Shown here piece by piece: positions 3 to 11,143 of a DNA stretch of 11,144 nucleotides. The notes under the pieces are model-generated. The model saw nothing but the letters and a program-made list of their open reading frames with translations. It made no database searches and had not been told where the DNA came from. Source of the stretch: an uncultured Deinococcales bacterium (lineage in GTDB: Bacteria; Deinococcota; Deinococci; Deinococcales; JAAFIG01). Every line of letters begins with the position of its first letter. The stretch's first letter is position 1. The translations under genes were made by a program, and so were the position numbers. Location of the stretch: contig CAXTTL010000161.1 in assembly GCA_964247135.1 (NCBI GenBank), positions 1-11,144 of the forward strand. The letters are read 5' to 3'.

Positions 3-1055
3 TACCCAATGGAAGCGGTCTGGTTGGACAATTCAAGCCTAATTTGCGGTTACACCTTTGGTGGTTCGGGCGGCATTGCCAAGGTCACGCTGAAAGGCAA
101 AACCGAAATTTTGCACCTCGAGCCTGACACCAACATCAATTCTTTTGCCGCCGCAAACGGCAACATCGCCTTCATCCGTGAGGCGCACGACGAACTCGGT
201 GAGGTTTACCTCGAGACCAGCGAAGACATTAAACAACTCACCAATATCTCCGACAATGCGCTGCCGGAATCGATCTCGAGCGGCTTGGAATATATCAAAC
301 TCGAGCGTGACGGTTTTGTGGTCGAGGGTTGGCTGCTCAAACCCGTCGGTTTCTCGAGCGGCAAGAAATATCCTGTGGTGCTCTCGGTTCACGGCGGTCC
401 CGCCACAGCGTATGGTCACGGTTATTTTCACGAATTTCAATTGCTGGCAAGCCAAGGTTATGCGGTGTTGTACGGAAACATTCGTGGCAGCGTCGGTTAT
501 GGTGAAACCCAAACCGCAGCCACAAACGGCAGTTATGGCTTGGGTGATTACGACGATCTGATGGCACTTTTCGACACCGCCCTCGAGCGTTTCCCATACC
601 TCGACCCCGCTCGAGCCGCCGTGATCGGTGGCAGTTACGGCGGGTTCATGACCAACTGGGTGATCTCTCACACCGACCGATTTAAAGCCGCCATCACCGA
701 CCGTTGCATCTGTAATTTCTTGTCTTTTTACGGCACCTCCGACATCGGTTACCGTTTTACCCCCAGAGAATTGCGCGGCGTCGTCCCCGATGACCTCGAG
801 CATTTGTGGGAAGTTTCACCGCTCAAGCATGTCAAAAACGTTAAAACACCGTGTTTGATTATTCATTCCGAAGCCGACCACCGTTGCCCCATCGAACAGG
901 GCGAGCAGTGGTTTAATGCTTTAAAGCGGTTGAATGTTCCAACCCGATTTGTCAGGTTCCCCGATGAGGGTCACGAACTCTCGAGGAGCGGCAGACCCGA
1001 CCGGCGCGTTCGACGTTTGAGCGAAATGCTCGAGTGGTTTGAAAAACACTTGTAA
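3..1055 (+). CDS. S9 family (prolyl oligopeptidase/acylaminoacyl peptidase-like) serine peptidase, probably 5'-truncated by the window
   Basis: Motifs YPVVLSVHGGP, GSVGYG, nucleophile elbow GGSYGG, catalytic Asp (EADHRC) and His (EGHELSRSG). The frame is open from the window edge, and most of the usual beta-propeller is absent. Confidence 0.92.
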   Translation, partial: YPMEAVWLDNSSLICGYTFGGSGGIAKVTLKGKTEILHLEPDTNINSFAAANGNIAFIREAHDELGEVYLETSEDIKQLTNISDNALPESISSGLEYIKLERDGFVVEGWLLKPVGFSSGKKYPVVLSVHGGPATAYGHGYFHEFQLLASQGYAVLYGNIRGSVGYGETQTAATNGSYGLGDYDDLMALFDTALERFPYLDPARAAVIGGSYGGFMTNWVISHTDRFKAAITDRCICNFLSFYGTSDIGYRFTPRELRGVVPDDLEHLWEVSPLKHVKNVKTPCLIIHSEADHRCPIEQGEQWFNALKRLNVPTRFVRFPDEGHELSRSGRPDRRVRRLSEMLEWFEKHL

Positions 1056-1128
1056 GCGTGTGCCGCAAAATCATCTCGTTCAATTGGGAGTCCGTCGTGC
1101 ATAATCTTTATAAAGTCTCGAGTGTTCA

Positions 1129-2037
1129 ATGAAGCTTGAAGTCAGTCCAGAACTAAAATCCAACCAATCAGAAAACATGGCGTATGTATCGGCACTCACG
1201 GCGGTTACGTTCTGGGGCGTCAACGTCGTGCTGCTCAAATTTTTGACCGGTGTTTTGCCACTGGCGGCGCTGAACGGTGTGCGGCTTGGCGTCGCCGCCG
1301 CGATTTTGTTATTCATTACCGGTGTGGTACGGCGTAAAACCAGTTTTTTTCCCAAACTTGAGGCTCGAGAATGGTTGATTATTGCCCTCGTCGGCGTCAT
1401 GGGTACAAGTGCTTATCAGTTCTTGTTCTCGAGTGGTATCAGGCTCTCGAGCGCCAGCTTTTCCGCACTGGTCAGCAGTACCAGCCCAATTTGGGTGGCA
1501 TTGATTGGCGTGTTTTTTAAGGTCAGGCTTTCACCAAATCAGATTCTTGGCAGTGGCGTTGCCATTCTTGGCGTGGTGCTGCTGACCTTTGAAAATTTAA
1601 ACTTGGGCGTCAATTTTCTGGGCGTGTTGTTGCTGCTCGGCTCACAAATTGTCTGGGCAATTTACACCCTGGCATCAAAACCCCTCATGACCCGCCTCGA
1701 GCCACTCGAGTTCACAGGTTTTACCTTCGCCCTCGGTTCGTTGCCGTATCTTCTTTACTGCCTGCCCGTGTTTTTTACACCAGAAATCAAGAATGTTGCC
1801 GCGCCCTACTGGATTGGTGCGGCGCTCTCGGCAGTTCTTGCCCAGGTGATCGGGTTTATCGGTTGGTTCACGGGCGCAAAAACTTTGGGTGCGGCTCGAG
1901 TTGCGGTCATGCTCAACATCACCCCAGTGGTGGGCGTGTTGCTTGCCGCACTGGTCTTACACGAACCCTTAACCTTGCTCGAGGGTGTTGCCGCACTGGT
2001 GATTTTTTTCGGTGTGTACTTGGCAAACAGGAAGTAA
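1129..2037 (+). CDS. EamA/DMT family transporter (alternative start ATG 1177)
   Basis: About 10 hydrophobic segments with a duplicated EamA pattern (FWGVNVV..K, GVRL, STSPIW, WAIYT..SKP, NITPV...LHEPL). Confidence 0.88.
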   Translation: MKLEVSPELKSNQSENMAYVSALTAVTFWGVNVVLLKFLTGVLPLAALNGVRLGVAAAILLFITGVVRRKTSFFPKLEAREWLIIALVGVMGTSAYQFLFSSGIRLSSASFSALVSSTSPIWVALIGVFFKVRLSPNQILGSGVAILGVVLLTFENLNLGVNFLGVLLLLGSQIVWAIYTLASKPLMTRLEPLEFTGFTFALGSLPYLLYCLPVFFTPEIKNVAAPYWIGAALSAVLAQVIGFIGWFTGAKTLGAARVAVMLNITPVVGVLLAALVLHEPLTLLEGVAALVIFFGVYLANRK

Positions 2038-2039
2038 TT

Positions 2040-2813
2040 TCAAGCGTATTGGGCTGCGGTTTTGACGGCAACCAAAATGGCATTTTGAATCGCTTGGTCT
2101 TTCTTCTCGAGGATGATGCTTTCATTGTCTTGGCGCTGGGCGACCACGGCGCAAACGCAAGCCGCCCTAAAACCGTAAACGTCCCCCATTTTAAACAGCG
2201 TGCCAGATTCCATCTCGAAATTGAGCACGTTTAAATTCATGTACTCGAGAATCATGCCCTGATTGACGCGCATCAAATGCGGGTTTGCGCCGCCAGAACG
2301 TTCTTGCCCCTCGTAAAACGTGTCCACGCTGGCGGTGATGCCGACATGATGCTCAACATTTAAATCCCTGGCGGTATTGGCAAGTGCCACGGTGACAAAC
2401 GGATCGGCGGAACTTGGATACTCGAGCGGCGCAATGTCGTTGGCAGCGCCTTGCCTGCACAGTGCCGCTTTGGAGATCACGATGCTGCCTGCCTTCACAT
2501 GGTCTTGAATGCTGCCGCAGGTGCCAACCCGAATAATAGTTTGAATGCCAACCTGGATCAATTCATTCACCACAATGCTTAAACTTGGAGCGCCCATGCC
2601 AGAGGTTGCCGAGAGCATTCGTTTGCCGTTCTCGAGCGTGCCCACATACGAGAACAACCCGCGATGCTCCGAAAGCGTGGTGACATCGTGCAAATAGGTG
2701 TTGGCAATCAGTTTGGCGCGGTCTGGATCGCCCGAAAGCAACGCGACGGTTGGCGGGTTTGGCTCGAGGTCGGCGCGTCCAAAACCAACGTGATACAAAC
2801 GGTCTGAGGTCAT
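2040..2813 (-). CDS. udp: Uridine phosphorylase (PNP/UDP nucleoside phosphorylase family)
   Basis: Motifs LYHVG, GDPDRA, SGMGAPS, RVGTCG, DTFYEGQER and NFEMES resemble Udp. Start moved from 2831 to ATG 2813 because TATAGT lies exactly 6 nt upstream of it. Confidence 0.82.
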   Translation of the reverse strand: MTSDRLYHVGFGRADLEPNPPTVALLSGDPDRAKLIANTYLHDVTTLSEHRGLFSYVGTLENGKRMLSATSGMGAPSLSIVVNELIQVGIQTIIRVGTCGSIQDHVKAGSIVISKAALCRQGAANDIAPLEYPSSADPFVTVALANTARDLNVEHHVGITASVDTFYEGQERSGGANPHLMRVNQGMILEYMNLNVLNFEMESGTLFKMGDVYGFRAACVCAVVAQRQDNESIILEKKDQAIQNAILVAVKTAAQYA

Positions 2814-2825
2814 GAAATTACTATA
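2814..2825 (-). promoter_or_regulatory. -10 box (TATAGT) of a putative leaderless udp transcript
   Basis: Minus strand reads TATAGT-aatttc-ATG. No Shine-Dalgarno and no convincing -35. Confidence 0.55.
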
Positions 2826-2840
2826 AGCCATTCAACCAAC

Positions 2841-2869
2841 TTGCGTCTCGAGCCTGAGCTTCGTATACT
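2841..2869 (+). promoter_or_regulatory. Sigma70-type promoter for the metG leader
   Basis: TTGCGT (2841-2846), 17-nt spacer, TATACT (2864-2869), then 6 nt to ATG 2876. Confidence 0.72.
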
Positions 2870-2875
2870 TGAGAC

Positions 2876-2923
2876 ATGAACAAGGTCGTGATCACATGGC
2901 GAATGCGAGGAATCATCCGGTAA
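2876..2923 (+). CDS. Putative leaderless leader peptide MNKVVITWRMRGIIR upstream of metG
   Basis: ATG at the predicted +1, 15 codons, internal Met at codon 10. The stop codon overlaps the 5' arm of a predicted antiterminator. Confidence 0.55.
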   Translation: MNKVVITWRMRGIIR

Positions 2924-2947
2924 CTTGAGTTTTTCTCGAGAGACCGG
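2917..2947 (+). promoter_or_regulatory. Putative antiterminator hairpin
   Basis: CCGGT-aa-CTTGAG-ttttt-CTCGAG-ag-ACCGG. Its 3' arm uses 2945-2947, which the terminator stem also needs. Confidence 0.5.
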
Positions 2948-2971
2948 GGCTTTGGTTTGCCCCGTTTTTTT
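2945..2971 (+). terminator. Intrinsic terminator (attenuator) in the metG leader
   Basis: CGGGGC-tttggttt-GCCCCG followed by T7, lying between the promoter and metG. Confidence 0.78.
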
Positions 2972-2996
2972 ATGGAAATTTGCAAAATAATTACGT

Positions 2997-3021
2997 CGTA
3001 GGGGCGCTGCTTGCTGCGCCC
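2997..3021 (+). repeat. GTAG-type REP-like palindrome, copy 1 (metG leader)
   Basis: CGTAGGGGCGCTGCTTGCTGCGCCC: GTAG followed by the stem GGGCGC/GCGCCC. Identical to 4669-4693. Confidence 0.75.
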
Positions 3022-3085
3022 TTCCCGAGAAACGAAATTTTCGAGTCAACGAAAAACAATTTCTCGAGATTCTGGAGCGTGTTTT

Positions 3086-5092
3086 ATGGAAGAAAAAGTG
3101 TTTTACCTCACCACCGCGATTGATTACGCCAACGCCAACCCGCACATTGGGCATGTCTACGAAAAGATTGTTTCTGATGTGATCGTGCGGGTTCACAGGT
3201 TGCTCGGTTATCGCACGCGCTTTTCGACGGGCACGGACGAGCACGGCGAGAAGATTTACAAAGCGGCGAAAGCGAACCATGAAACGCCGCAAGAATTTGT
3301 GGATCGAATCGTACCAAGCGGCTTTCAGGCGTTGTATGACCGTTTGAACATCTCATACGACCGTTTTATTCGCACCACCGAAGCTGGGCACAAGGCATTC
3401 GTGCAAGTGATGCTGCAAAAAACCCATGACGCGGGCGATATTTACCTGGCGGAGTACGAGGGATTGTACTCGGTCGGTGCGGAACGGTACGTGACCGACA
3501 AAGAACTGGTGAACGGCATCCTGCCAGGGGACAAGGACCCGCCCGAGTTGCGCCGCGAGCAAAATTATTTTTTCAAAATGGAAAAATACCGCCCGTGGTT
3601 GCTCGAGCATCTGGCACAAAACCCAGACTTTATTCAACCCGCCCAATGGCGGAACGAACTGCTCGAGATGCTGCGCGAACCGATTGGGGATTTGAGCATT
3701 TCCAGACCGCTCGAGCGGCTGCCTTGGGGCATTCCGATTCCTTGGGACGATGGTCACGTGGTTTATGTTTGGTACGACGCGCTGATCAATTATTTGTCGC
3801 AACTTTACACGGACGGTTTGACGCCAGAGGATTCAGAAGTGTTTTGGAAACACGCTTGGCACGTGATCGGCAAGGATATTTTGCGTCCCCACGCGATTTT
3901 TTGGACGACCATGCTGAAAGCCGCCAATTACCCAATGTACGAGCGCCTCAACATTCACGGGCATATTCTCGCGCCTGACGGTCAAAAAATGGGCAAAAGC
4001 TTGGGCAATGCCATCAATCCGCTCGAGTTGCTCGAGAAGTACGGCATTGATGCGGTGCGTTACGCCTTGGTGCGCGACACAACTTACGGTCCCGATAGTG
4101 CTTTTGGCGAGAACGATTTGATCTCGAGGCTCAATTCTGACCTGGCAAACGATCTTGGGAATTTGCTCTCGCGGGTGCTCAGCATGGTGCAAAAATACCG
4201 TGATGGTGTCGTGCCAGCGCCCTCAGATTATTCCGAACGCGAACTGGGCATCAAAGCCGCCGCCGAAGCCTTGCCCGCCAAATTGCTCGAGGAAACCCGT
4301 GATTTACGGCTTCATTTGGCTATCGAAGCCGTGCTCGAGTTTGTGCGCGATTTAAATCGTTTTGTTGCTGAGTCCAAACCTTGGGAACTTGCACGCAATC
4401 TTGATAGCTCGAGTCGTCTCGATACCGTTCTGTACACGCTGCTCGAAGGAATTCGGTTTGCTTCACTGTTGCTCGAGCCTGTGATTCCCACAAAAGCCCT
4501 CGAGATTCGGGCGCAACTTGGGCTTGACGCTGTTGATGCGACGGGCGTAAACGGAACTCGAGACGGAGTGAATGCACTTGTTTGGGGTGCGACACCTTCT
4601 GGAATCAGCATCAAACCTGGTGGAATTCTGTTCCCGAAAATTGAACTCGAGAAATCCGAACCATCCAACGTAGGGGCGCTGCTTGCTGCGCCCAACGCAG
4701 CAACACAACCCAAACCTCAAAAGGAGAAACCAGCCGTGATTGACCCCGCCAAAGAAACCTCGAGCGAATTTATTACCATTGACGAATTTATGAAAGTTGA
4801 TCTGCGCATTGCCGAAGTCGTGGCTTGCGAAAAACTCGAGAAATCCGACAAACTTCTGAAATTCACGCTCAAACTTGGTGAGGAAACCCGCACGGTGCTT
4901 TCAGGCATTGCCGCCTGGTACGACCCAGCAACCTTGGTGGGGCGGCGCGTGGTGTTGGTGGCAAACCTCGCGCCTCGGGTGATGCGCGGTGTCGAATCTC
5001 AGGGCATGATTCTTTCTGCCGAGGATGAACATGGCAATGTCGTGCTGTTGACACCTGAGAAACTGGTGAATGGCGGCGCTCGAGTTCGTTAA
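3086..5092 (+). CDS. metG: Methionine--tRNA ligase with C-terminal tRNA-binding (Trbp111/CsaA-like OB-fold) domain
   Basis: FYLTTAIDYAN..PHIGH (HIGH), GTDEHG, YVWYDAL, IGKDI, KMGKS (KMSKS variant), NDLGNL and C-terminal DLRIAEV...ESQGM. GGAG Shine-Dalgarno precedes ATG 3086; the track's TTG 3011 start is unlikely. Confidence 0.97.
   Translation: MEEKVFYLTTAIDYANANPHIGHVYEKIVSDVIVRVHRLLGYRTRFSTGTDEHGEKIYKAAKANHETPQEFVDRIVPSGFQALYDRLNISYDRFIRTTEAGHKAFVQVMLQKTHDAGDIYLAEYEGLYSVGAERYVTDKELVNGILPGDKDPPELRREQNYFFKMEKYRPWLLEHLAQNPDFIQPAQWRNELLEMLREPIGDLSISRPLERLPWGIPIPWDDGHVVYVWYDALINYLSQLYTDGLTPEDSEVFWKHAWHVIGKDILRPHAIFWTTMLKAANYPMYERLNIHGHILAPDGQKMGKSLGNAINPLELLEKYGIDAVRYALVRDTTYGPDSAFGENDLISRLNSDLANDLGNLLSRVLSMVQKYRDGVVPAPSDYSERELGIKAAAEALPAKLLEETRDLRLHLAIEAVLEFVRDLNRFVAESKPWELARNLDSSSRLDTVLYTLLEGIRFASLLLEPVIPTKALEIRAQLGLDAVDATGVNGTRDGVNALVWGATPSGISIKPGGILFPKIELEKSEPSNVGALLAAPNAATQPKPQKEKPAVIDPAKETSSEFITIDEFMKVDLRIAEVVACEKLEKSDKLLKFTLKLGEETRTVLSGIAAWYDPATLVGRRVVLVANLAPRVMRGVESQGMILSAEDEHGNVVLLTPEKLVNGGARVR
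4669..4693 (+). repeat. GTAG-type REP-like palindrome, copy 2 (in-frame in the metG linker, encodes VGALLAAP)
   Basis: 25/25 identity to 2997-3021. Confidence 0.75.
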
Positions 5093-5126
5093 GACTCGAG
5101 CACGCTTTTCATTTTAGTTTGGTGTT

Positions 5127-5150
5127 CGATTTCTCTCGAGATCGCTTTTT
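5127..5150 (+). terminator. Weak candidate terminator after metG
   Basis: CGATTTC-tctc-GAGATCG (one G:U pair) followed by cTTTTT. Confidence 0.3.
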
Positions 5151-5291
5151 GGCATAGATTGAGATTTCATTAATTTTGCCGAAAAACGCGCTCCAGGGCG
5201 ATGATTATATTGCTCCAAACATCCAAAGTAATCCGTCAAAAAAGACCTCGGGACGCATAAATCTCATGTAATGAAAATTCTGTTGTAACAT

Positions 5292-7142
5292 GTGAAAACG
5301 ATGCAACGCGTTCAGCAAAAACTTGGACTTGACATTCTTTTATGGGTTTGTGCGGCGGTGGTTGCGTTTTTTATGCGAATTGACTTGCCGTTCCTCAGTT
5401 CAAAGCGCATTATTTTTTGGTTTGTCCTGCTGACGGCGCCCATTAAAATTGGTTTGGTCATTTTGTTTCAGTTGCACCGACAAAGTTGGCACCGTGTCGG
5501 CGTCCGTGACCTGTACCAACTTGGGTGGGCAATTGGTCTGTACACCGTGCCACTGTATTTGCTTAATTTTACCCTGGTCCAGATCACGCACATTCCGCGC
5601 AGCATTCCACTGATTGAGGGGGGCGTGGCGCTGCTTGCCCTTGGCGGGGTGCGTTTGATGACTCGGGTGTACTTTGAACGCGAAGATGCGAGAAGTTTTA
5701 CCGGTCGCAGCTCGAGTCGGGTTTTAATTGTTGGCGCAGGCGAGGCTGGCATCATGATTGCCAGGGAGATGTTGCGTCATCCTTCATCTGGGCTTGAACC
5801 CATCGGTTTTCTGGATGACGAACCCGCCAAAGCCAATCTTCGTTACATGGGTTTGCCAGTTTTGGGTGTAATTGACGCCCTGCCGCGCCTTGCCGCCAAA
5901 GCGAGCGCCGACCAAATTTTAATTGCGCTGCCAAGCGTTGCGGGTCGCGTGATTCGCCGCGTGGTAGACTTGGCACAAGAGTCAAACCTCAAGTACCGCA
6001 TCATTCCTGGCGTGTTTGAAATCCTCTCTGGCAAAGTTGGCATCAGCCAAATTCGTGACGTTGACCTGGAGGATTTGCTGCGCCGCGAACCCGTCAAACT
6101 GCATCTCGAGGACATTTCGGGCTATCTCGAGCAACGCACGGTCTTGATTACGGGTGCGGGCGGTTCAATCGGTTCAGAAATTGTGCGTCAGGTGGCACGT
6201 TTTCAACCGACTCGGGTGGTGCTGTTTGGGCGCGGTGAAAACAGCGTGTTTTTGATGGCTCAAGAATTGCGGCGCATGTGGCCCGAACTCGAGTATCACA
6301 ACCTGATCGGTGATGTGCGCGACAAGGGCAAGCTTGAGGAGGTGTTCTTACGATTTGCGCCGCAAGTGGTGTTTCATGCCGCAGCGCACAAGCACGTGGG
6401 GCTGATGGAACAAAACCCTGACGAAGCCGTGTTTAACAACGTCAAAGGTACCAAAAACCTGGTCGAACTCGCGCTCGAGTTCCATGTCGAGCGCTTTGTC
6501 AACATTTCCACCGATAAAGCGGTCAATCCCACATCAATCATGGGGGCAAGCAAACGCATCGCCGAGTACGTGGTCGAATGGGCGGCAGCCAGAGCTATGC
6601 CAGGACAGGTTTTTGTCAGCGTCCGTTTTGGCAATGTGCTCGGCTCGAGGGGCAGTGTGGTGCCGCTTTTTAAAGAGCAAATCAAGGCGGGCGGACCGGT
6701 TTTGGTGACGCATCCGGACATGACCCGGTACTTTATGACCATTCCAGAGGCGGCGCAATTGGTCTTGCAGGCGGGTGGTTTGGGAACCAACGGCGCGGTC
6801 TACGTGCTTGACATGGGCGAACCGGTCAAGATTTTGGACCTTGCCAAAGACGTGATTCGACTTTCGGGATTTGAGGCTGGGACGGACATCGACATTGTTT
6901 TTACGGGTGCGCAACCTGGGGAAAAACTTTTTGAAGAGTTGCTCACCCACGAGGAGGGAACAACCTCATCAAAATACGCCAAAATCTTTTCGGCAAAAAA
7001 GGCGGGAATGCCAGAATCCGACCTCGAGCTTGGTCTAGACGAATTGTTTCATGCGGCACAACTCCGCGATGCCGATTTGATTCGGGCGACCTTCAAAAAA
7101 TTGATTCCAAGTTTTGGGGTTTTTGCCGCAAATCGAAACTGA
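5292..7142 (+). CDS. CapD/PglF/WbpM-type membrane-anchored nucleoside-diphosphate sugar 4,6-dehydratase (alternative start ATG 5301)
   Basis: Four N-terminal TM segments, LIVGAGEAG domain, EDLLRREPV, TGAGGSIGSE, FHAAAHKHV, STDKAVNP, MGASK, RFGNVLGSRGSV, RYFMTIPEA. Confidence 0.93.
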   Translation: MKTMQRVQQKLGLDILLWVCAAVVAFFMRIDLPFLSSKRIIFWFVLLTAPIKIGLVILFQLHRQSWHRVGVRDLYQLGWAIGLYTVPLYLLNFTLVQITHIPRSIPLIEGGVALLALGGVRLMTRVYFEREDARSFTGRSSSRVLIVGAGEAGIMIAREMLRHPSSGLEPIGFLDDEPAKANLRYMGLPVLGVIDALPRLAAKASADQILIALPSVAGRVIRRVVDLAQESNLKYRIIPGVFEILSGKVGISQIRDVDLEDLLRREPVKLHLEDISGYLEQRTVLITGAGGSIGSEIVRQVARFQPTRVVLFGRGENSVFLMAQELRRMWPELEYHNLIGDVRDKGKLEEVFLRFAPQVVFHAAAHKHVGLMEQNPDEAVFNNVKGTKNLVELALEFHVERFVNISTDKAVNPTSIMGASKRIAEYVVEWAAARAMPGQVFVSVRFGNVLGSRGSVVPLFKEQIKAGGPVLVTHPDMTRYFMTIPEAAQLVLQAGGLGTNGAVYVLDMGEPVKILDLAKDVIRLSGFEAGTDIDIVFTGAQPGEKLFEELLTHEEGTTSSKYAKIFSAKKAGMPESDLELGLDELFHAAQLRDADLIRATFKKLIPSFGVFAANRN

Positions 7143-7186
7143 GACTTTGGGCTAAACGCCAGGCTCGAGAGGACTATGTTTCTTGA

Positions 7187-7215
7187 TTGAGCCTGACCCT
7201 CAAACCAAGTACCAT
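7187..7215 (+). promoter_or_regulatory. Sigma70-type promoter for a leaderless hisC-hisB transcript
   Basis: TTGAGC (7187-7192), 17-nt spacer, TACCAT (7210-7215), then 6 nt to the in-frame ATG 7222. Confidence 0.65.
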
Positions 7216-7221
7216 GTTTGC

Positions 7222-8316
7222 ATGACGATTTCGAGCGCCAAAAACCCAGCCAAGAATCCTGGCAAAAATCCGGTCAGGGCGCAGGTGCAAAACGCGCCTT
7301 TGTACCCTTTTACCCCAATTGATGCGCCGATCAAGCTCGATCAGAACGAAAGCCCGTCTGATGTCCCGCTCAGCTTGAAACGCGAGATTTTTGCGCGGCT
7401 CGAGCAAATTCCTTGGAATCGTTACCCCGAAATGCACAGCGATGGCTTAAAGCAAAAAATTGCCGCGCTCGAGGATTGGGATGCCGCAGGCGTGGTGCTC
7501 GCGCCTGGCTCGAACGTGTTGATTTACGCCTTGGCACAGATTGCTGGCATTGGTCAGCGAGTCTTGACCGTATCGCCTGGTTTTGCCCTCTATGCGCTCT
7601 CAGGCAAGCTTCTTGGCGGCACTCTAACCGAGTTGCCCCTCGAGCCAGATTTTTCGTTGCCCATCGATGATCTCTGCCGTGAATTGCGAAACGCTGGTCC
7701 TGGCATCTTGTTTTTGGCTGAGCCTCACGCGCCGACTGGGGCGTTACACCCAATTTCAGACATCTTGCGGATTCTCGAGGCGGCGAGGGGTGAATGGTTG
7801 GTGGTGCTTGACGAGGCTTATGTCCAATATGCCAATGGCAACCTCAAACAATTGGCACTCGAGCACGACAATGTGGTGATTTTGCGAACGTTTTCCAAAG
7901 CCTGGGGTTTGGCTGGCGTGCGGTTGGGGTACTTGCTTTCTAACCCGAATTTGGCAGCCAATGTTCAAAAAATGCTGTTGCCGTTTAACATCTCAATCCT
8001 GCACCAAGTCACTGCCGAGGTGATTCTCGAGCATCCCGAAATCACCAAATCTCTGATTCAGCACACGATTCTCGAGCGTGAGAGAGTGTTCAAAGCTCTT
8101 CTCGAGCACCCAAATTGGATTGCGTATCAATCAAATGCGAATTATATTTTGGTTCGCACCAATGACGCCAAACGGGTTCATGGAATGTTGCTGGAGCGTG
8201 GTATTTTGGTGCGTCGTCAAGATTCGTATCAGAACCTCGAGGGTTGTATTCGGGTCAGTATCGGCACAACCCTCGAAAACGATGCCTTCATTGCCGCCAT
8301 TAAGGACATTTCATGA
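7222..8316 (+). CDS. hisC: Histidinol-phosphate aminotransferase
   Basis: IKLDQNESP, NRYP, DEAY, PLP-lysine motif RTFSKAWGLAGVRLGY, IRVSIGT. Overlaps hisB. Start reassigned from TTG 7183 to ATG 7222. Confidence 0.93.
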   Translation: MTISSAKNPAKNPGKNPVRAQVQNAPLYPFTPIDAPIKLDQNESPSDVPLSLKREIFARLEQIPWNRYPEMHSDGLKQKIAALEDWDAAGVVLAPGSNVLIYALAQIAGIGQRVLTVSPGFALYALSGKLLGGTLTELPLEPDFSLPIDDLCRELRNAGPGILFLAEPHAPTGALHPISDILRILEAARGEWLVVLDEAYVQYANGNLKQLALEHDNVVILRTFSKAWGLAGVRLGYLLSNPNLAANVQKMLLPFNISILHQVTAEVILEHPEITKSLIQHTILERERVFKALLEHPNWIAYQSNANYILVRTNDAKRVHGMLLERGILVRRQDSYQNLEGCIRVSIGTTLENDAFIAAIKDIS

Positions 8317-8900
8317 CCCGAGCCGCCACCGTCGAGCGCAACACCTTGGAGACCCAAATCAAAATCAGCCTCGACCTGGATCAAAATTTGACGGGCAAGC
8401 TCGAGACGGGTCACGCATTTTTGGATCACATGCTCGACCAGATTCGCCGTCACGGTCGGCTTGGTTTGATTGTCGAGGGCAGGGGAGACTTGGCGGTGGA
8501 CGTGCATCATCTTGCCGAGGATACGGGCATCACGCTTGGCATGGCGGTGCTGCAAGCCCTGGGCGACAAGCGCGGGATCGAACGTTACGCCGATGCGTTC
8601 ATACCGATGGACGAAACCCTGGCGCAGGTGGTGCTCGACTTTTCTGGACGCGCCCACCTCGAGTTTAAACCCGAAGATTTGGGCGTTGCCGGCGACGCGG
8701 GCGGTTTTACGATTTACCATTTGCGCGAATTTTTGCGCGGATTTTGCAACCACGCGGGCGCAACCTTGCACGTTCGGTTGCTCAACGGCAAAGAAATCCA
8801 TCATGTGGTCGAAGCCATTTTTAAGGCTTTTGCCAGGGCATTGTTCGCCGCCACCCGAGTCACCAGCCAGGATTTGCCTAGCACCAAAGGCACCTTGTAA
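8313..8900 (+). CDS. hisB: Imidazoleglycerol-phosphate dehydratase
   Basis: RNTLETQI, FLDHML, DVHHLAEDTGI, PMDETL, HHVVEAIFKAFARAL, PSTKGTL. ATGA overlap with the hisC stop. Confidence 0.97.
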   Translation: MTRAATVERNTLETQIKISLDLDQNLTGKLETGHAFLDHMLDQIRRHGRLGLIVEGRGDLAVDVHHLAEDTGITLGMAVLQALGDKRGIERYADAFIPMDETLAQVVLDFSGRAHLEFKPEDLGVAGDAGGFTIYHLREFLRGFCNHAGATLHVRLLNGKEIHHVVEAIFKAFARALFAATRVTSQDLPSTKGTL

Positions 8901-8918
8901 ATCTCTGAGACTCGAGAT

Positions 8919-8956
8919 AAAAACCTCGAGCTTCCAAGCATCTGGAAGCTCGAGGT
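8919..8956 (-). terminator. Intrinsic terminator between convergent hisB and osmC (U-tail on the osmC strand)
   Basis: Perfect 14-bp stem ACCTCGAGCTTCCA (8923-8936) / TGGAAGCTCGAGGT (8943-8956) with a 6-nt loop. The A-run at 8919-8923 gives a T-tail on the minus strand. Confidence 0.75.
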
Positions 8957-8968
8957 GGGCTTAAATTT

Positions 8969-9394
8969 CTAGCCTTCTAACGCGGCATCAAGTTCCATCG
9001 GCACGCTTTGGAGTGCCCTTGAAACGATACAACCCGTTTTGGTCGCCTCGGCGAGTTCCAAAAATTGCTCGCTCGAGATGCCTGGTACGACCGCGCGGGT
9101 CACGAGTTTGAGTTTGGTGATGCTCATGCCGTCACCAACTTTTTCGACCGTGCAGTTGCCTTCGGTGGCGACCTTGATTGGCACAAAACCGTTGCGCTCG
9201 AGTGCGGCGTTCAGCGCCATCGAGTAACAGCCGGCGTGGGCGGCTGCCAATAATTCTTCTGGGTTGCTGCCAGGACCGTCCTCAAAGCGGCTCGAGAATG
9301 CGTATTGAATGTCAAGTCCAGATTGTCCGGTGATGTGTCCCTTGCCCTCTTTGAGCGTTCCAGTCCAGGTGGCGGCAGCTTTGCGTGTTGGCAT
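8969..9394 (-). CDS. osmC: OsmC family peroxiredoxin
   Basis: W.GTLKEGKG, FSSRFE, NPEELLAAAHAGCYSMAL, second Cys in KTGCIVSRAL. Shine-Dalgarno AAAGGAGA upstream. Confidence 0.93.
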   Translation of the reverse strand: MPTRKAAATWTGTLKEGKGHITGQSGLDIQYAFSSRFEDGPGSNPEELLAAAHAGCYSMALNAALERNGFVPIKVATEGNCTVEKVGDGMSITKLKLVTRAVVPGISSEQFLELAEATKTGCIVSRALQSVPMELDAALEG

Positions 9395-9476
9395 GTTGTT
9401 TCTCCTTTACTCGAGCGTTGAAACCCGAGGTTTTATTGTAAGCCAGCCAAGTTGAGGGATTTGTTATGTACGTTGC

Positions 9477-10106
9477 TCAAATTGCTGTTTTGGCTTGGAC
9501 GCCCAAAGCGCGACGCAAAAAGGCAACAGTCTCGGTAATGTAACGCTCGGGTTGAATGTCTGAGCGCCCAAAAATGATGGCGCGGCTGAGCGGCATCATC
9601 ACACCGCTGACCAATTCGGCGGTGATTTGCAAATCGAGACTCGCATCGATTTCTTGGCGCGCTCGTGCGGTCTCGAGCATCAAGATCATTTGCTTGACCT
9701 GCTGATCTTGCTCCATTTGCAGGCGTTTGCTGCCGCCCAAGAGCACATCCATTTCGATCACGTGCATCAGGTCACGGTGTCGTTGCGATACCTTGTACAC
9801 CGCCCAGATGATGGCTTGGATCATCTCGAGAATCGGTTTTTGAGCGTCCATCACCGAAAAAATGGCGCTACGAATCTCGAGCTGCAACCCTTCGGCGACG
9901 GCGGCGATCAAATCGGCTTTGGATGGAAAATAAAGGTAGAACGTGCCCTTGGCAATCCCCGCCAGTTCAACAATTTCGGATACTGGAACGTCGTCGTAAC
10001 GTTTTAAAGACAGGATCGAACGCGCCGCCTCGAGGATTCGCGCCCGTTTGTCAGATTCTTTGGGCTTGGCTGGGTCTGAAATGCTGCTCGAGTTGAGAAC
10101 GGTCAT
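9477..10106 (-). CDS. TetR/AcrR family transcriptional regulator (start ATG 10106, or TTG 10115 overlapping the RND stop)
   Basis: KRARILEAA...VSEIVELAGIAKGTFYLYFPSKADL helix-turn-helix. Lies directly downstream of the RND gene. Confidence 0.92.
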   Translation of the reverse strand: MTVLNSSSISDPAKPKESDKRARILEAARSILSLKRYDDVPVSEIVELAGIAKGTFYLYFPSKADLIAAVAEGLQLEIRSAIFSVMDAQKPILEMIQAIIWAVYKVSQRHRDLMHVIEMDVLLGGSKRLQMEQDQQVKQMILMLETARARQEIDASLDLQITAELVSGVMMPLSRAIIFGRSDIQPERYITETVAFLRRALGVQAKTAI

Positions 10107-10111
10107 CGGAT

Positions 10112-11143
10112 TCAATCTGCCGCCTGCGGCGCAAGCTTTGCGTCTGGGGTCAGGCTGCCCTCGCGCTTGGTTTGCGGTTGAATGCGTCGGCGTTCAAATC
10201 GGTAGAACGCCGATGGCACAACGAATAAAGTCAGGATGGTACTGGTGAGGACGCCGCCCAAAATTACCACGCCCAGACCTTTGCGAAACTCTGAACCCTC
10301 GCCCTCGCCCAGAATCAATGGGATGCTGATGACCAGCACGGTCAATGTGGTCATGATAATCGGACGAAGGCGCAAGCCTGCCGCCTCGACCAGGGCATCT
10401 GCCAATGGCATGGCTCGAGCGCGTTCGACCACAAAATCGAGCAGCAGAATCGCGTTTTTGGTGACCAAGCCGACCAAAACCACCATGCCCAAAACCGTGA
10501 TGATGTCGAGCGCCACGCCCAGAATGGCGAGCGCCCAGATGGCGCCGACCACCGCCAGCGGCACGGGAAGGAGCAAATATATGGGGTATCTAAAACTGTT
10601 GAACTGACTGCCGAGCACGATGTAATTCAACAGCAGCGCCACAACAATCGCAATCGGACCGTACAAGAACAAATTGCCCAACAGCGCCGCGCTGCCCGTC
10701 GAACTGCCCGAACCGATGCGCACCTGGTCATCGACCAAGCCCTGGTCTTTGAGCATTTTTTCGATGGGTGCTCGAGCCGCAAAACCGTTGACACCTTTTT
10801 TCAGCGTCAAGTTGAGGGTCGCATTGTAAGTTTTGGACAATCGACTGATGGTGCTGGGGGCTTGGCGCAACTCGAAATGCCCAAGTTCTGAGAGTGGCAG
10901 GACCGAAGCGAGCGTTGGTGCGTACACGGGCAAGTCGAGCAAGGATTGTTGCCCGCTGATCAGCACAGGATCAAGTTTGACGTTCACATTGTACGATTCG
11001 TCGCCGTCGCGGAACGTCCCCGCTTTCGTGCCCTGGTTGGCGGTGCGAATCGACTGCGCCAAATCGTCGGGCGTCAAACCGGTGCCCTCGAGTTTGCTCT
11101 GCTCTGGCACAAAAGACTGCTCGAGCGAGGTCTGGTTGATCGA
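10112..11143 (-). CDS. RND (AcrB/AcrD/AcrF family) efflux permease, C-terminal part, 5'-truncated by the window
   Basis: LGSQFNSFRYP, PLAVVGA, GLVTKNAILLLDF, RLRPIIMTT, GGVLTSTILTLFVVP. The frame is open to the window end. Confidence 0.93.
   Translation of the reverse strand, partial: SINQTSLEQSFVPEQSKLEGTGLTPDDLAQSIRTANQGTKAGTFRDGDESYNVNVKLDPVLISGQQSLLDLPVYAPTLASVLPLSELGHFELRQAPSTISRLSKTYNATLNLTLKKGVNGFAARAPIEKMLKDQGLVDDQVRIGSGSSTGSAALLGNLFLYGPIAIVVALLLNYIVLGSQFNSFRYPIYLLLPVPLAVVGAIWALAILGVALDIITVLGMVVLVGLVTKNAILLLDFVVERARAMPLADALVEAAGLRLRPIIMTTLTVLVISIPLILGEGEGSEFRKGLGVVILGGVLTSTILTLFVVPSAFYRFERRRIQPQTKREGSLTPDAKLAPQAAD

Follow-up and report, generated by a model that had tools for sequence, protein, structure and literature searches.

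A highly iterated CTCGAG palindrome in uncultured Deinococcales held by a weak directional force on DNA

CTCGAG in the window and in its source genome

The stretch of DNA analysed here (the window) is an 11,144-nt contig from an uncultured Deinococcales bacterium. It carries ten genes, all of them containing the palindromic hexamer CTCGAG (Table 1). The original prediction, made from the letters alone, had claimed about 79 copies where about 3 were expected, spread over every gene and all three frames. The exact count was 79, from 117-122 to 11120-11125, and the mononucleotide expectation was 3.02 at the window GC of 0.529, which gives a 26-fold excess. Shuffling the window 200 times with dinucleotides preserved left a mean of 1.82 copies (maximum 5), and 0 of 200 shuffles reached 79. 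All 10 genes contained sites (2-17 each). Within them the word was read as CTC-GAG at 48 sites, as xCT-CGA-G at 8 and as xxC-TCG-AG at 13, and 10 more sites lay in or across the roughly 640 bp of non-coding DNA. The peptide contexts that had been named were all found, with Leu-Glu (LE) 48 times, together with ISS, FSS, TSS, ARE, ARV and TRD. The ten genes are housekeeping only, so the determinant gene lies outside the window, as had been proposed.

The source genome (G000) is an 84% complete metagenome-assembled genome (MAG) of 5.09 Mb in 386 contigs, of which the window is contig C161. It holds 33,925 copies of CTCGAG (6.66 per kb, observed/expected ratio (O/E) 24.8), that is about one copy per 150 bp or 4% of the genome, and CTCGAG is its most over-represented 6-mer. 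The word occurred on all 386 contigs, with a minimum of 2.56 and a median of 6.81 per kb, and the idea that the enrichment is confined to the window therefore fails. A fourth-order Markov model gave an O/E of only 1.24, but this is unusable as a null because its 5-mers (CTCGA) lie 88% inside the word itself (33,925 of 38,652). The core is the hexamer. Its flank preferences are weak, and TCGA outside the word is near expectation (54,610 minus 33,925 versus about 19,800 expected).

A fragmented and incomplete MAG could in principle suggest an artefact of assembly, binning or library. The word is, however, on every contig and in the other 18 genomes of the family (five genera; 4.3-6.8 per kb by rounded genome sizes), including the closed single-contig genome G011. 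Short contigs assembled separately from two further public freshwater runs, belonging to two studies, matched window segments with 0-1 differences (85-235, 1582-1814, 5928-6299 and others), motif sites included. Only these two public runs hold parts of the window (word shares 0.17 and 0.08), and their contigs serve as presence evidence only. In addition, five methionyl-tRNA synthetase (MetRS) loci from Deinococcales MAGs had CTCGAG O/E of 20-32, and 75 loci from other phyla 0-5.5. The artefact explanation, named beforehand as a refuter, is already refuted, and we give it a negligible chance.

Another explanation is a by-product of composition, either of codon and dipeptide usage, CTC and GAG being ordinary codons, or of CTCGAG being the sole palindrome spared by restriction-modification (R-M) systems. 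Genes were called by our own procedure, which scores open reading frames (ORFs) by codon usage (4,320 genes, 85.7% coding), and the ten Pfam-supported genes of the window were recovered. The density of CTCGAG was 6.56 per kb in coding and 7.30 per kb in non-coding DNA. Genome-wide, 17,845 sites were read as CTC-GAG, 4,206 as xCT-CGA-Gxx and 6,548 as xxC-TCG-AGx. A synonymous shuffle that kept protein sequence and per-gene codon usage left 3,879-3,991 sites in five replicates versus 28,599 observed, a 7.3-fold excess, and a codon-order shuffle left 1,648-1,751.

Codon choice was strongly context-specific. The codon CTC was used for 82% of Leu before Glu versus 15% elsewhere, GAG for 84% of Glu after Leu versus 32% elsewhere, and 17,844 of 23,161 LE pairs (77%) were written CTC-GAG. 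The synonymous opportunities in the other frames were filled at 6,548 of 13,494 (xxC-TCG-AGx) and 4,206 of 9,960 (xCT-CGA-Gxx), so that the range by frame was 42-77%. The dipeptide LE was itself over-represented (O/E 2.34 versus 1.01 for EL), as was Ser-Ser (1.61). These results indicate that the CTCGAG excess is independent of protein coding and that the word has added Leu-Glu pairs to proteins. The earlier claim that Leu-Glu and codon usage cannot account for the word is thus borne out, the excess outliving both codon and dipeptide control. The genome-wide process then proposed for creating or maintaining it is supported as a lineage-wide process at the level of DNA.

Highly iterated palindromes (HIPs) are exact short palindromes in at least about 15-fold genome-wide excess, present in all coding frames and in non-coding DNA beyond what codon usage gives. 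Our results show the same for CTCGAG. It is a genuine highly iterated palindrome, held by a weak, persistent directional force on the DNA itself.

Table 1. Positions of the features discussed (frames are given as CTC-GAG/xCT-CGA-G/xxC-TCG-AG)
Feature	Sequence	Position	Strand	Details
79 CTCGAG sites	window	117..11125	.	mean spacing about 141 bp; 3.02 expected
S9 peptidase gene, 5' end cut by contig end	window	3..1055	+	Pfam PF00326; 10 sites, frames 6/1/3
EamA transporter gene	window	1129..2037	+	7 sites, frames 3/2/2
Purine/uridine phosphorylase-family gene	window	2040..2831	-	5 sites, all CTC-GAG
Methionyl-tRNA synthetase (MetRS) gene	window	3011..5092	+	17 sites, frames 11/3/3
Two sites (5095, 5135) just 3' of the MetRS stop codon	window	5095..5140	.	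site listing
Polysaccharide biosynthesis (Polysacc_synt_2) gene	window	5292..7142	+	7 sites, frames 5/0/2
Class I/II aminotransferase (HisC-like) gene	window	7183..8316	+	9 sites, all CTC-GAG
Imidazoleglycerol-phosphate dehydratase (HisB) gene	window	8313..8900	+	2 sites
Three sites (8911, 8925, 8949) in the short spacer between hisB and the OsmC-like gene	window	8911..8954	.	site listing
OsmC-like gene	window	8969..9394	-	3 sites
TetR-family regulator gene	window	9477..10115	-	5 sites
AcrB-family transporter gene, C-terminal part, cut by contig end	window	10112..11143	-	4 sites
Motif-free stretches	G000	C13:11898-14536, C70:14173-16418, C135:851-3324, C13:4763-6745, C20:7991-9673		1.7-2.6 kb, GC 0.27-0.40
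CRISPR array	G000	C221:7026-8137 and C9:61-168		37-nt repeat containing CTCGAG
R-M loci	G000	L288 (C14), L289 (C178), L290 (C36), L291 (C189), L097 (C320)		

Placement, turnover and phylogenetic breadth of the sites

CTCGAG showed no periodicity up to 1.5 kb in G000. Within 30 bp of one copy a second was under-represented (g(r) 0.5); the depletion was strong in coding DNA, and in non-coding DNA it applied to distances under about 13 bp. Density was flat across genes, with a dip in their first 30 bp, and peaked genome-wide at 12.2 per kb over the 30 bp that follow stop codons. Non-coding sites had a symmetric flank preference, with A at -3 (0.43) and T at +3 (0.42) over a background of 0.26-0.27. 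The exact 6-bp palindrome, the symmetric flanks and the exclusion within about 13-18 bp point to recognition on double-stranded DNA by a symmetric (dimeric) factor. A role in hairpins or terminator stems was rejected. The density peak just after stop codons was the only positive sign for it; complementarity of the +/-1 flanks was 0.21 versus 0.27 expected, close pairs were depleted, and CTCGAG sites were not centres of longer palindromes.

Several features of spacing and composition were seen besides these. A centre-to-centre spacing of 8 (CTCGAGNNCTCGAG) was almost forbidden (11 cases versus 216 expected, 1 of them in non-coding DNA), and avoidance of GAGNNCTC (O/E 0.31-0.45) is too mild to be its cause. 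The window contains two site pairs 9 apart, 1696/1705 and 4022/4031. Among 4-mers of G000, A- and T-runs were strongly over-represented (AAAA/TTTT O/E 3.0, CAAA/TTTG 2.9), and those containing TAG were all strongly under-represented (CTAG 0.07, ACTA/TAGT 0.11).

Along the closed chromosome of G011, twenty evenly spaced 20-kb samples held 63-111 sites each (SD 11.2 versus a Poisson SD of 9.5), and no origin-to-terminus trend was seen in them. The longest motif-free gaps of G000 were stretches of GC 0.27-0.40 (Table 1), which are probably recently acquired islands. The low-GC R-M genes still held 3.8-7.3 CTCGAG per kb.

Comparison with four same-genus genomes showed that motif hexamers were fully conserved at 51/70, 38/52, 50/58 and 39/56 positions (70-86%), and control hexamers at 31-41%. 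Third-codon positions were 83-93% identical inside the word and 61-69% outside it; non-coding bases were 86-100% identical in the motif and 69-74% outside. The sites are thus conserved above background among relatives, as in HIPs. For wider comparison, MetRS codons were aligned from 15 family and 11 outgroup genomes (26 in total), with 44 motif columns in the 15 family genes. The closest relatives shared 12 of the 16 G000 sites, and genera at about 62% protein identity shared 1-3 of 16, and despite this turnover each family gene kept 3.6-8.2 CTCGAG per kb. CTCGAG is therefore conserved within a genus, and its positions turn over between genera at constant density. In the 38 columns with enough outgroups, the outgroup-majority peptide was compatible with the motif in 2, and no outgroup was compatible in 25. 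LE pairs numbered 8-14 per MetRS in the family versus 2-7 in the outgroups. Taken with the conservation, these results indicate that new CTCGAG sites keep arising, often through replacement of amino acids, and are afterwards retained.

The one-mismatch neighbours of CTCGAG were at unremarkable levels, with O/E of 0.08-1.74 (genome median 0.79), and the transition neighbours were highest, with TTCGAG at 1.74 and CTTGAG at 1.17 in G000. At equilibrium, the motif-to-neighbour ratio of about 25 would correspond to a fixation bias of about 25:1 per site (scaled strength near 3). With a bias so weak per site but large when summed, density would matter rather than any single site.

The binding site of an abundant nucleoid-associated or chromosome-structuring protein would be expected to show the uniform chromosomal distribution, the short-range exclusion and the symmetric flank preference seen here, and conserved sites as well. 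No nucleoid protein is known to us that would bind 34,000 sites with a strict specificity of 6 bp. Moreover, the positions turn over freely between genera, and a signal of chromosome architecture should not recur at full density in mobile DNA, considered below. This explanation is improbable in our judgement. It has been proposed for the cyanobacterial HIP1 (Xu, Lawrence and Durand 2018), for which site conservation is also used as an argument (PMC5861425).

CTCGAG was counted in 363 Deinococcales genomes, which include the unpublished G329, on which no claim rests. The family of G000 (f1, 19 genomes) was uniformly extreme. The 111 genomes of genus g7 held 26-1,372 copies each, and in genus g9 CTCGAG was about as frequent as its reverse GAGCTC, as codon usage predicts. 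Genus g19 contained both states, with the carriers G153 (8.6 per kb) and G154 (7.0 per kb) and the non-carrier G155 (0.3 per kb). In sampled DNA the O/E was 25-30 in the two carriers. G154 (GC 0.52) had a CTCGAG O/E of 25.6, 86% of LE pairs written CTCGAG and an LE O/E of 2.66; the values for G155 (GC 0.50) were 1.2, 6% and 1.14. Three weaker high-GC carriers (G036, G193 and G179), analysed with a crude ORF caller on small samples, had an O/E of about 10, LE written as CTCGAG at 63-75% versus 19-28% CTC for Leu elsewhere, and 2.6-3.4 CTCGAG per kb in non-coding DNA.

A quick single-gene MetRS tree of 30 genomes, with a midpoint root only, recovered the family as monophyletic (support 98) and G154 and G155 as sisters (support 99, long branches), and it placed the non-carriers g7 and g14 between carrier lineages. 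It follows that the trait either has several origins or is ancient and has disappeared on several occasions. Our results show a new pattern, in which the trait is patchy across Deinococcales, with presence and absence even within one genus, and this suggests that the determinant was gained and lost. In conclusion, the force is DNA-level, density-type and continual, it acts on all resident DNA, and its determinant comes and goes in evolution.

Restriction-modification systems and CRISPR-recorded DNA

The original prediction had noted that restriction-type palindromes are usually avoided, and this was apt for G000, where nearly all other 6-bp palindromes are extremely avoided. GAGCTC was counted 0 times, GGGCCC 1, CGGCCG 3, AGGCCT 4, CGTACG 5, GGATCC 7, CCGCGG 11 and CAGCTG 15, and GGCC had 380 sites (O/E 0.016). 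CTCGAG might then be no more than the one palindrome that the resident R-M systems spare, and the near-equality of CTCGAG and GAGCTC in g9 would suit the compositional explanation as well. However, escape from avoidance would give an O/E near 1, not 25. G153 and G154 carry the trait without GGCC avoidance (O/E 0.80 and 0.91), and G011 avoids a different set of palindromes. Together with the 7.3-fold excess over the synonymous shuffle, the higher density in non-coding DNA and the context-specific codon choice, this refutes composition as the explanation for G000, and we consider it highly improbable.

The family is very rich in methyltransferases. Nearly all those of G000 adjoin NgoPII-, Eco29kI-, PvuII-, MvaI/BcnI-, NotI- or SacI-like nucleases, or are MmeI-like (two) or helicase-fused (one). 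We presume from the families concerned that these systems recognise the near-absent GGCC, CCGCGG, CAGCTG and GAGCTC. The exceptions both lie on contig C4, one being an N6_N4 fragment cut by the contig end and the other a pair of unassigned specificity. This pair was rejected as the determinant, as it occurs in only 7 of 31 genomes and has internal stop codons (a pseudogene) in two of them. The D12 methylases were also rejected, since their partners are SacI-like or NotI-like nucleases. One such system, a SacI-like nuclease paired with a methylase of the D12 class (L097:320-2244 on C320 of G000; L099 in G011; L103 in G005), is kept across genera with 72-83% identity between G000 and G011. Found in 20 of 363 genomes, this nuclease tracks the lowest GAGCTC counts (only 10-75 in the six g7 genomes with such a system) and not CTCGAG, and it was set aside for that reason. 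The helicase fusion is a 1,499-aa protein on C112 (L295:1668-6167) that joins an Eco57I/N6-type methylase domain to a SNF2-type helicase and is possibly part of a larger defence system.

Vsr (PF03852) was found in 0 of the 19 family genomes, the XhoI-family nuclease (PF04555) in 0 of 19 and TaqI_C in 0 of the 5 genomes searched. C5 methylases were missing from G008 and N4/N6 methylases from the closed G011, so that no methyltransferase class was universal among the family genomes. An XhoI-family nuclease was seen only in G021, of the sister family, where it adjoins an N4/N6 methylase. Against G000 this nuclease had no tblastn match, and the methylase had 25% identity and no close homolog.

These results bear on methylation-coupled biased repair, the model of Elhai for HIPs, in which a methyltransferase marks CTCGAG or TCGA, repair converts near-sites to it, and the word accumulates without function. 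In its favour, HIP1 and the alternate HIPs are described as co-occurring with cognate methyltransferases (Elhai 2015, PMC4390886), and an orphan CTCGAG methylase is reported in Nocardia (Blow et al. 2016, PMC4752239). The family is rich in methyltransferases, and a repair bias acting inside the cell would work on mobile DNA too, which fits the spacers described below. The cognate, often orphan, methyltransferase typical of HIPs was not found here, and MAG incompleteness, unassigned specificities and non-orthologous enzymes of equal specificity leave room for one. On the other side stand the missing Vsr, XhoI and TaqI_C families, the gaps in methylase classes in G008 and G011, and the pairing or fusion of nearly all G000 methyltransferases in systems of other kinds. 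Drive by Vsr would also deplete the T:G-derived neighbours, and the deamination-type neighbours TTCGAG and CTTGAG were undepleted. The candidate of an orphan methyltransferase with methyl-directed or Vsr repair, put forward in the original prediction, was thus left unsupported, and we hold the explanation to be unlikely.

The clustered regularly interspaced short palindromic repeats (CRISPR) of G000 have CTCGAG in the repeat itself (Table 1), and the same repeat family forms arrays in G002, G003, G007 and G008. From these 5 genomes we collected 91 unique spacers (3,162 nt, GC 0.53). They held 23 CTCGAG (8.5 per kb), where 0.74 would be expected at random and about 18 at host density. The sites fell in 21 of the 91 spacers at offsets spread over 0-27, with 6 of 23 in the first three. 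GGCC occurred 3 times versus 14 expected, and the 3-mer composition of the spacers correlated at 0.90 with the host versus 0.59 with unrelated bacteria. A near-full-length match to its own assembly (35 of 37 nt) was found for 1 of 16 G000 spacers, and 1 of 35 spacers of the G002 array had a weak match (88-89% identity) in five same-genus genomes. Therefore the CRISPR-targeted DNA is mostly not chromosomal, yet it has the host signature. A spacer motif density at host level is a new finding.

The one self-matching G000 spacer corresponds to a thioredoxin-like gene at C25:927-961 and is possibly self-targeting. Spacers of different genera, on C57 of G002 (L325) and C36 of G008 (L327), have an identical 13-nt core, which suggests that a conserved gene of related mobile elements is targeted. 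A further spacer of G002 corresponds to an element of 20-21 nt that recurs on 8 or more contigs of G000 and may be a REP-like repeat. Spacer cores had 0 matches in three viral and two metagenome scans, and the targets were not identified. Viral contigs with three clustered CTCGAG (at least 80 loci) were rejected as candidates, as they were mostly high-GC and unrelated among the matches listed. The strongest phage candidate was the IMG/VR record behind L142 (G031; loci L230-L232), a complete genome of 46 kb that has terminal repeats, an abundance of palindromes containing TCGA (CTCGAG O/E 6.7, CGATCG 6.4) and none of 18 of the 64 palindromic hexamers. It was not accepted as a phage of this family, being enriched in CGATCG and GGATCC, which the host avoids, and its host is probably another lineage.

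The HK97-type capsid gave no match above cut-off in any of the 19 family genomes, and TerL_ATPase none in G000; prophages of common type seem rare or unbinned in this R-M-rich family. Such signs of conflict, with the many R-M systems and the extreme palindrome avoidance, would suit a self-mark for defence or genome maintenance, in which a nuclease or surveillance system would spare CTCGAG-dense DNA, as Chi shields E. coli DNA from RecBCD or as a restriction in reverse, and the word would be selected for in the chromosome and in successful mobile elements alike. CRISPR-targeted DNA of host-level density and host-like composition, low-GC R-M genes that carry the word and recently acquired low-GC islands that do not are all compatible with it. 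Chi sites, however, are asymmetric and oriented, and a palindrome cannot be oriented or show strand bias. A search for RecC (PF04257), which did not extend to AddAB, gave no match in any of the 5 genus representatives. Furthermore, no candidate system was found, the motif-free islands persist in the genome, and phages commonly share the oligonucleotide signatures of their hosts for other reasons. We rate such a mark as less likely still than methylation-coupled repair. The spacer result itself fits an in-cell repair bias or a defence-read self-mark as well as it fits the kin-DNA tag considered below.

Interpretation and comparison with known systems

The presence of CTCGAG in genes, in intergenic DNA and in CRISPR-recorded foreign DNA argues for an actively maintained genome word. 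The explanation we tentatively place first is that CTCGAG may be a density-type tag of kin DNA, read on double-stranded DNA. Word-rich DNA would be preferentially taken up, recombined or spared, and this bias would itself make CTCGAG accumulate in all replicons circulating within the lineage, much as with the DNA-uptake sequences of Neisseria and Haemophilus and with HIP1 in its recent reinterpretation. The protein that reads it would be something other than an XhoI-type R-M system. We rank the kin-DNA tag first because it best brings together the two-fold excess of encoded peptides, the lack of the word in new islands, sites that sit at variable residues, positions that turn over and a pool of mobile DNA with the same signature. 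Like known uptake sequences, CTCGAG has its encoded peptides enriched about 2-fold and is lacking in newly acquired genes. Uptake machinery is also present: all 5 genus representatives have ComEC (PF03772), four of them with open frames of 760-824 aa and G010 with one of 561 aa at a contig edge.

A number of points weigh against the kin-DNA tag. ComEC is widespread and nearly universal and so is weak evidence. At 6 bp and 6.7 copies per kb, the palindrome is both far shorter and far denser than known DNA-uptake sequences, which are 9-12 bp long, non-palindromic and spaced about once per kb. In cultured Thermus and Deinococcus, natural competence is not known to involve any preference for particular sequences, and g9 and g7, which we take to be these two genera, lack the trait. 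With a 25-fold excess, each site would discriminate only modestly. Lytic phages do not come in through uptake, so if they are what the CRISPR systems target, the spacer density would argue for a force inside the cell. The directional test of one-off sequences turning into the motif was underpowered in the window (6 ancestral one-off positions), and the synteny of contig C1 used for such a comparison was patchy at 70-81% identity. No reader or receptor was identified. Finally, a graded drive is described for uptake sequences (Bakkali 2007, PMC1939737), and the one-mismatch forms of CTCGAG, with O/E of 0.08-1.74 versus a genome median of 0.79, show no such graded over-representation.

A broader formulation is that resident DNA would bear a heritable mark of identity in its CTCGAG density, read by a sequence-specific system that does not act by methylation and was gained and lost repeatedly. 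It would amount to a new kind of self/non-self discrimination or of repair bias, and we regard it as doubtful, somewhat more so than the kin-DNA tag. If the identity mark were real, 4% of the genome and thousands of protein positions would have been rewritten, in chromosome and mobile elements alike, and it would give a second, independent and experimentally tractable instance of a HIP.

Highly iterated palindromes have been a cyanobacterial puzzle for three decades, and a second HIP system outside that phylum would make a comparative test of the rival ideas possible. The CTCGAG system has its own word at a higher density, lacks an obvious cognate methylase, and provides natural contrasts between G153/G154 and G155 in one genus and between genera of one family that do and do not carry the trait. 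Among the weaker carriers are nearly complete genomes of few contigs, which, judging from completeness and contig counts, may be cultured strains; if so, methylome, XhoI-digestion, uptake and pull-down experiments would be feasible. The word also flags foreign DNA in these genomes and shows which mobile DNA is of the lineage, and studies of codon usage, selection or binning on these MAGs need to take it into account. In the limited library that our literature search covered, no published report of the CTCGAG phenomenon was found.

CTCGAG is identical to the recognition sequence of the XhoI/PaeR7I R-M systems, but R-M targets are normally avoided and CTCGAG is enriched here in genomes with no XhoI-family endonuclease gene found. 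The orphan methyltransferase of Nocardia shares the word and a non-restriction role (PMC4752239). The Nocardia sites are described in that report as local clusters near dnaA and the replication origin that track the orphan methylase, whereas the density here is uniform and no matching methylase was found.

The DNA uptake sequences and uptake signal sequences (DUS/USS) of Neisseriaceae and Pasteurellaceae are a further parallel. They are likewise a genome-wide excess of a short word, produced by a weak directional force and free of orientation or replication bias. The peptides they encode are about doubled, and they are absent from genes without homologs in relatives and lie at poorly conserved residues (Findlay & Redfield 2009, PMC2817400), as CTCGAG is absent from newly acquired genes and lies at such residues. 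CTCGAG differs from DUS/USS in being a 6-bp palindrome about six times denser, with one-mismatch forms that are not enriched.

The closest likeness is to HIP1 (GCGATCGC) and the alternate HIPs. CTCGAG differs from them in belonging to another phylum, in being a hexamer rather than an octamer, in its density of 6.7 per kb (4% of the genome), and in its patchiness, with presence and absence within one genus. HIPs are described as co-occurring with a cognate methyltransferase, whereas no cognate or conserved one was found for CTCGAG. HIP1 has been reported to show chromosome-scale periodicity of 10-90 kb (Xu et al. 2018, PMC5861425), and a recent proposal makes it an uptake sequence by which transformation is enhanced (PMC13756078). 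Like CTCGAG, the HIPs are exact short palindromes over-represented at least 15-fold (PMC4390886; PMC5861425), found in every frame of coding sequence as well as in non-coding DNA, conserved beyond background and lineage-wide with exceptions, and their function is presented in these sources as unexplained. The likeness extends to the CRISPR repeat, which holds the word in G000, as is reported for HIP1 in Synechocystis (PMC6604393).

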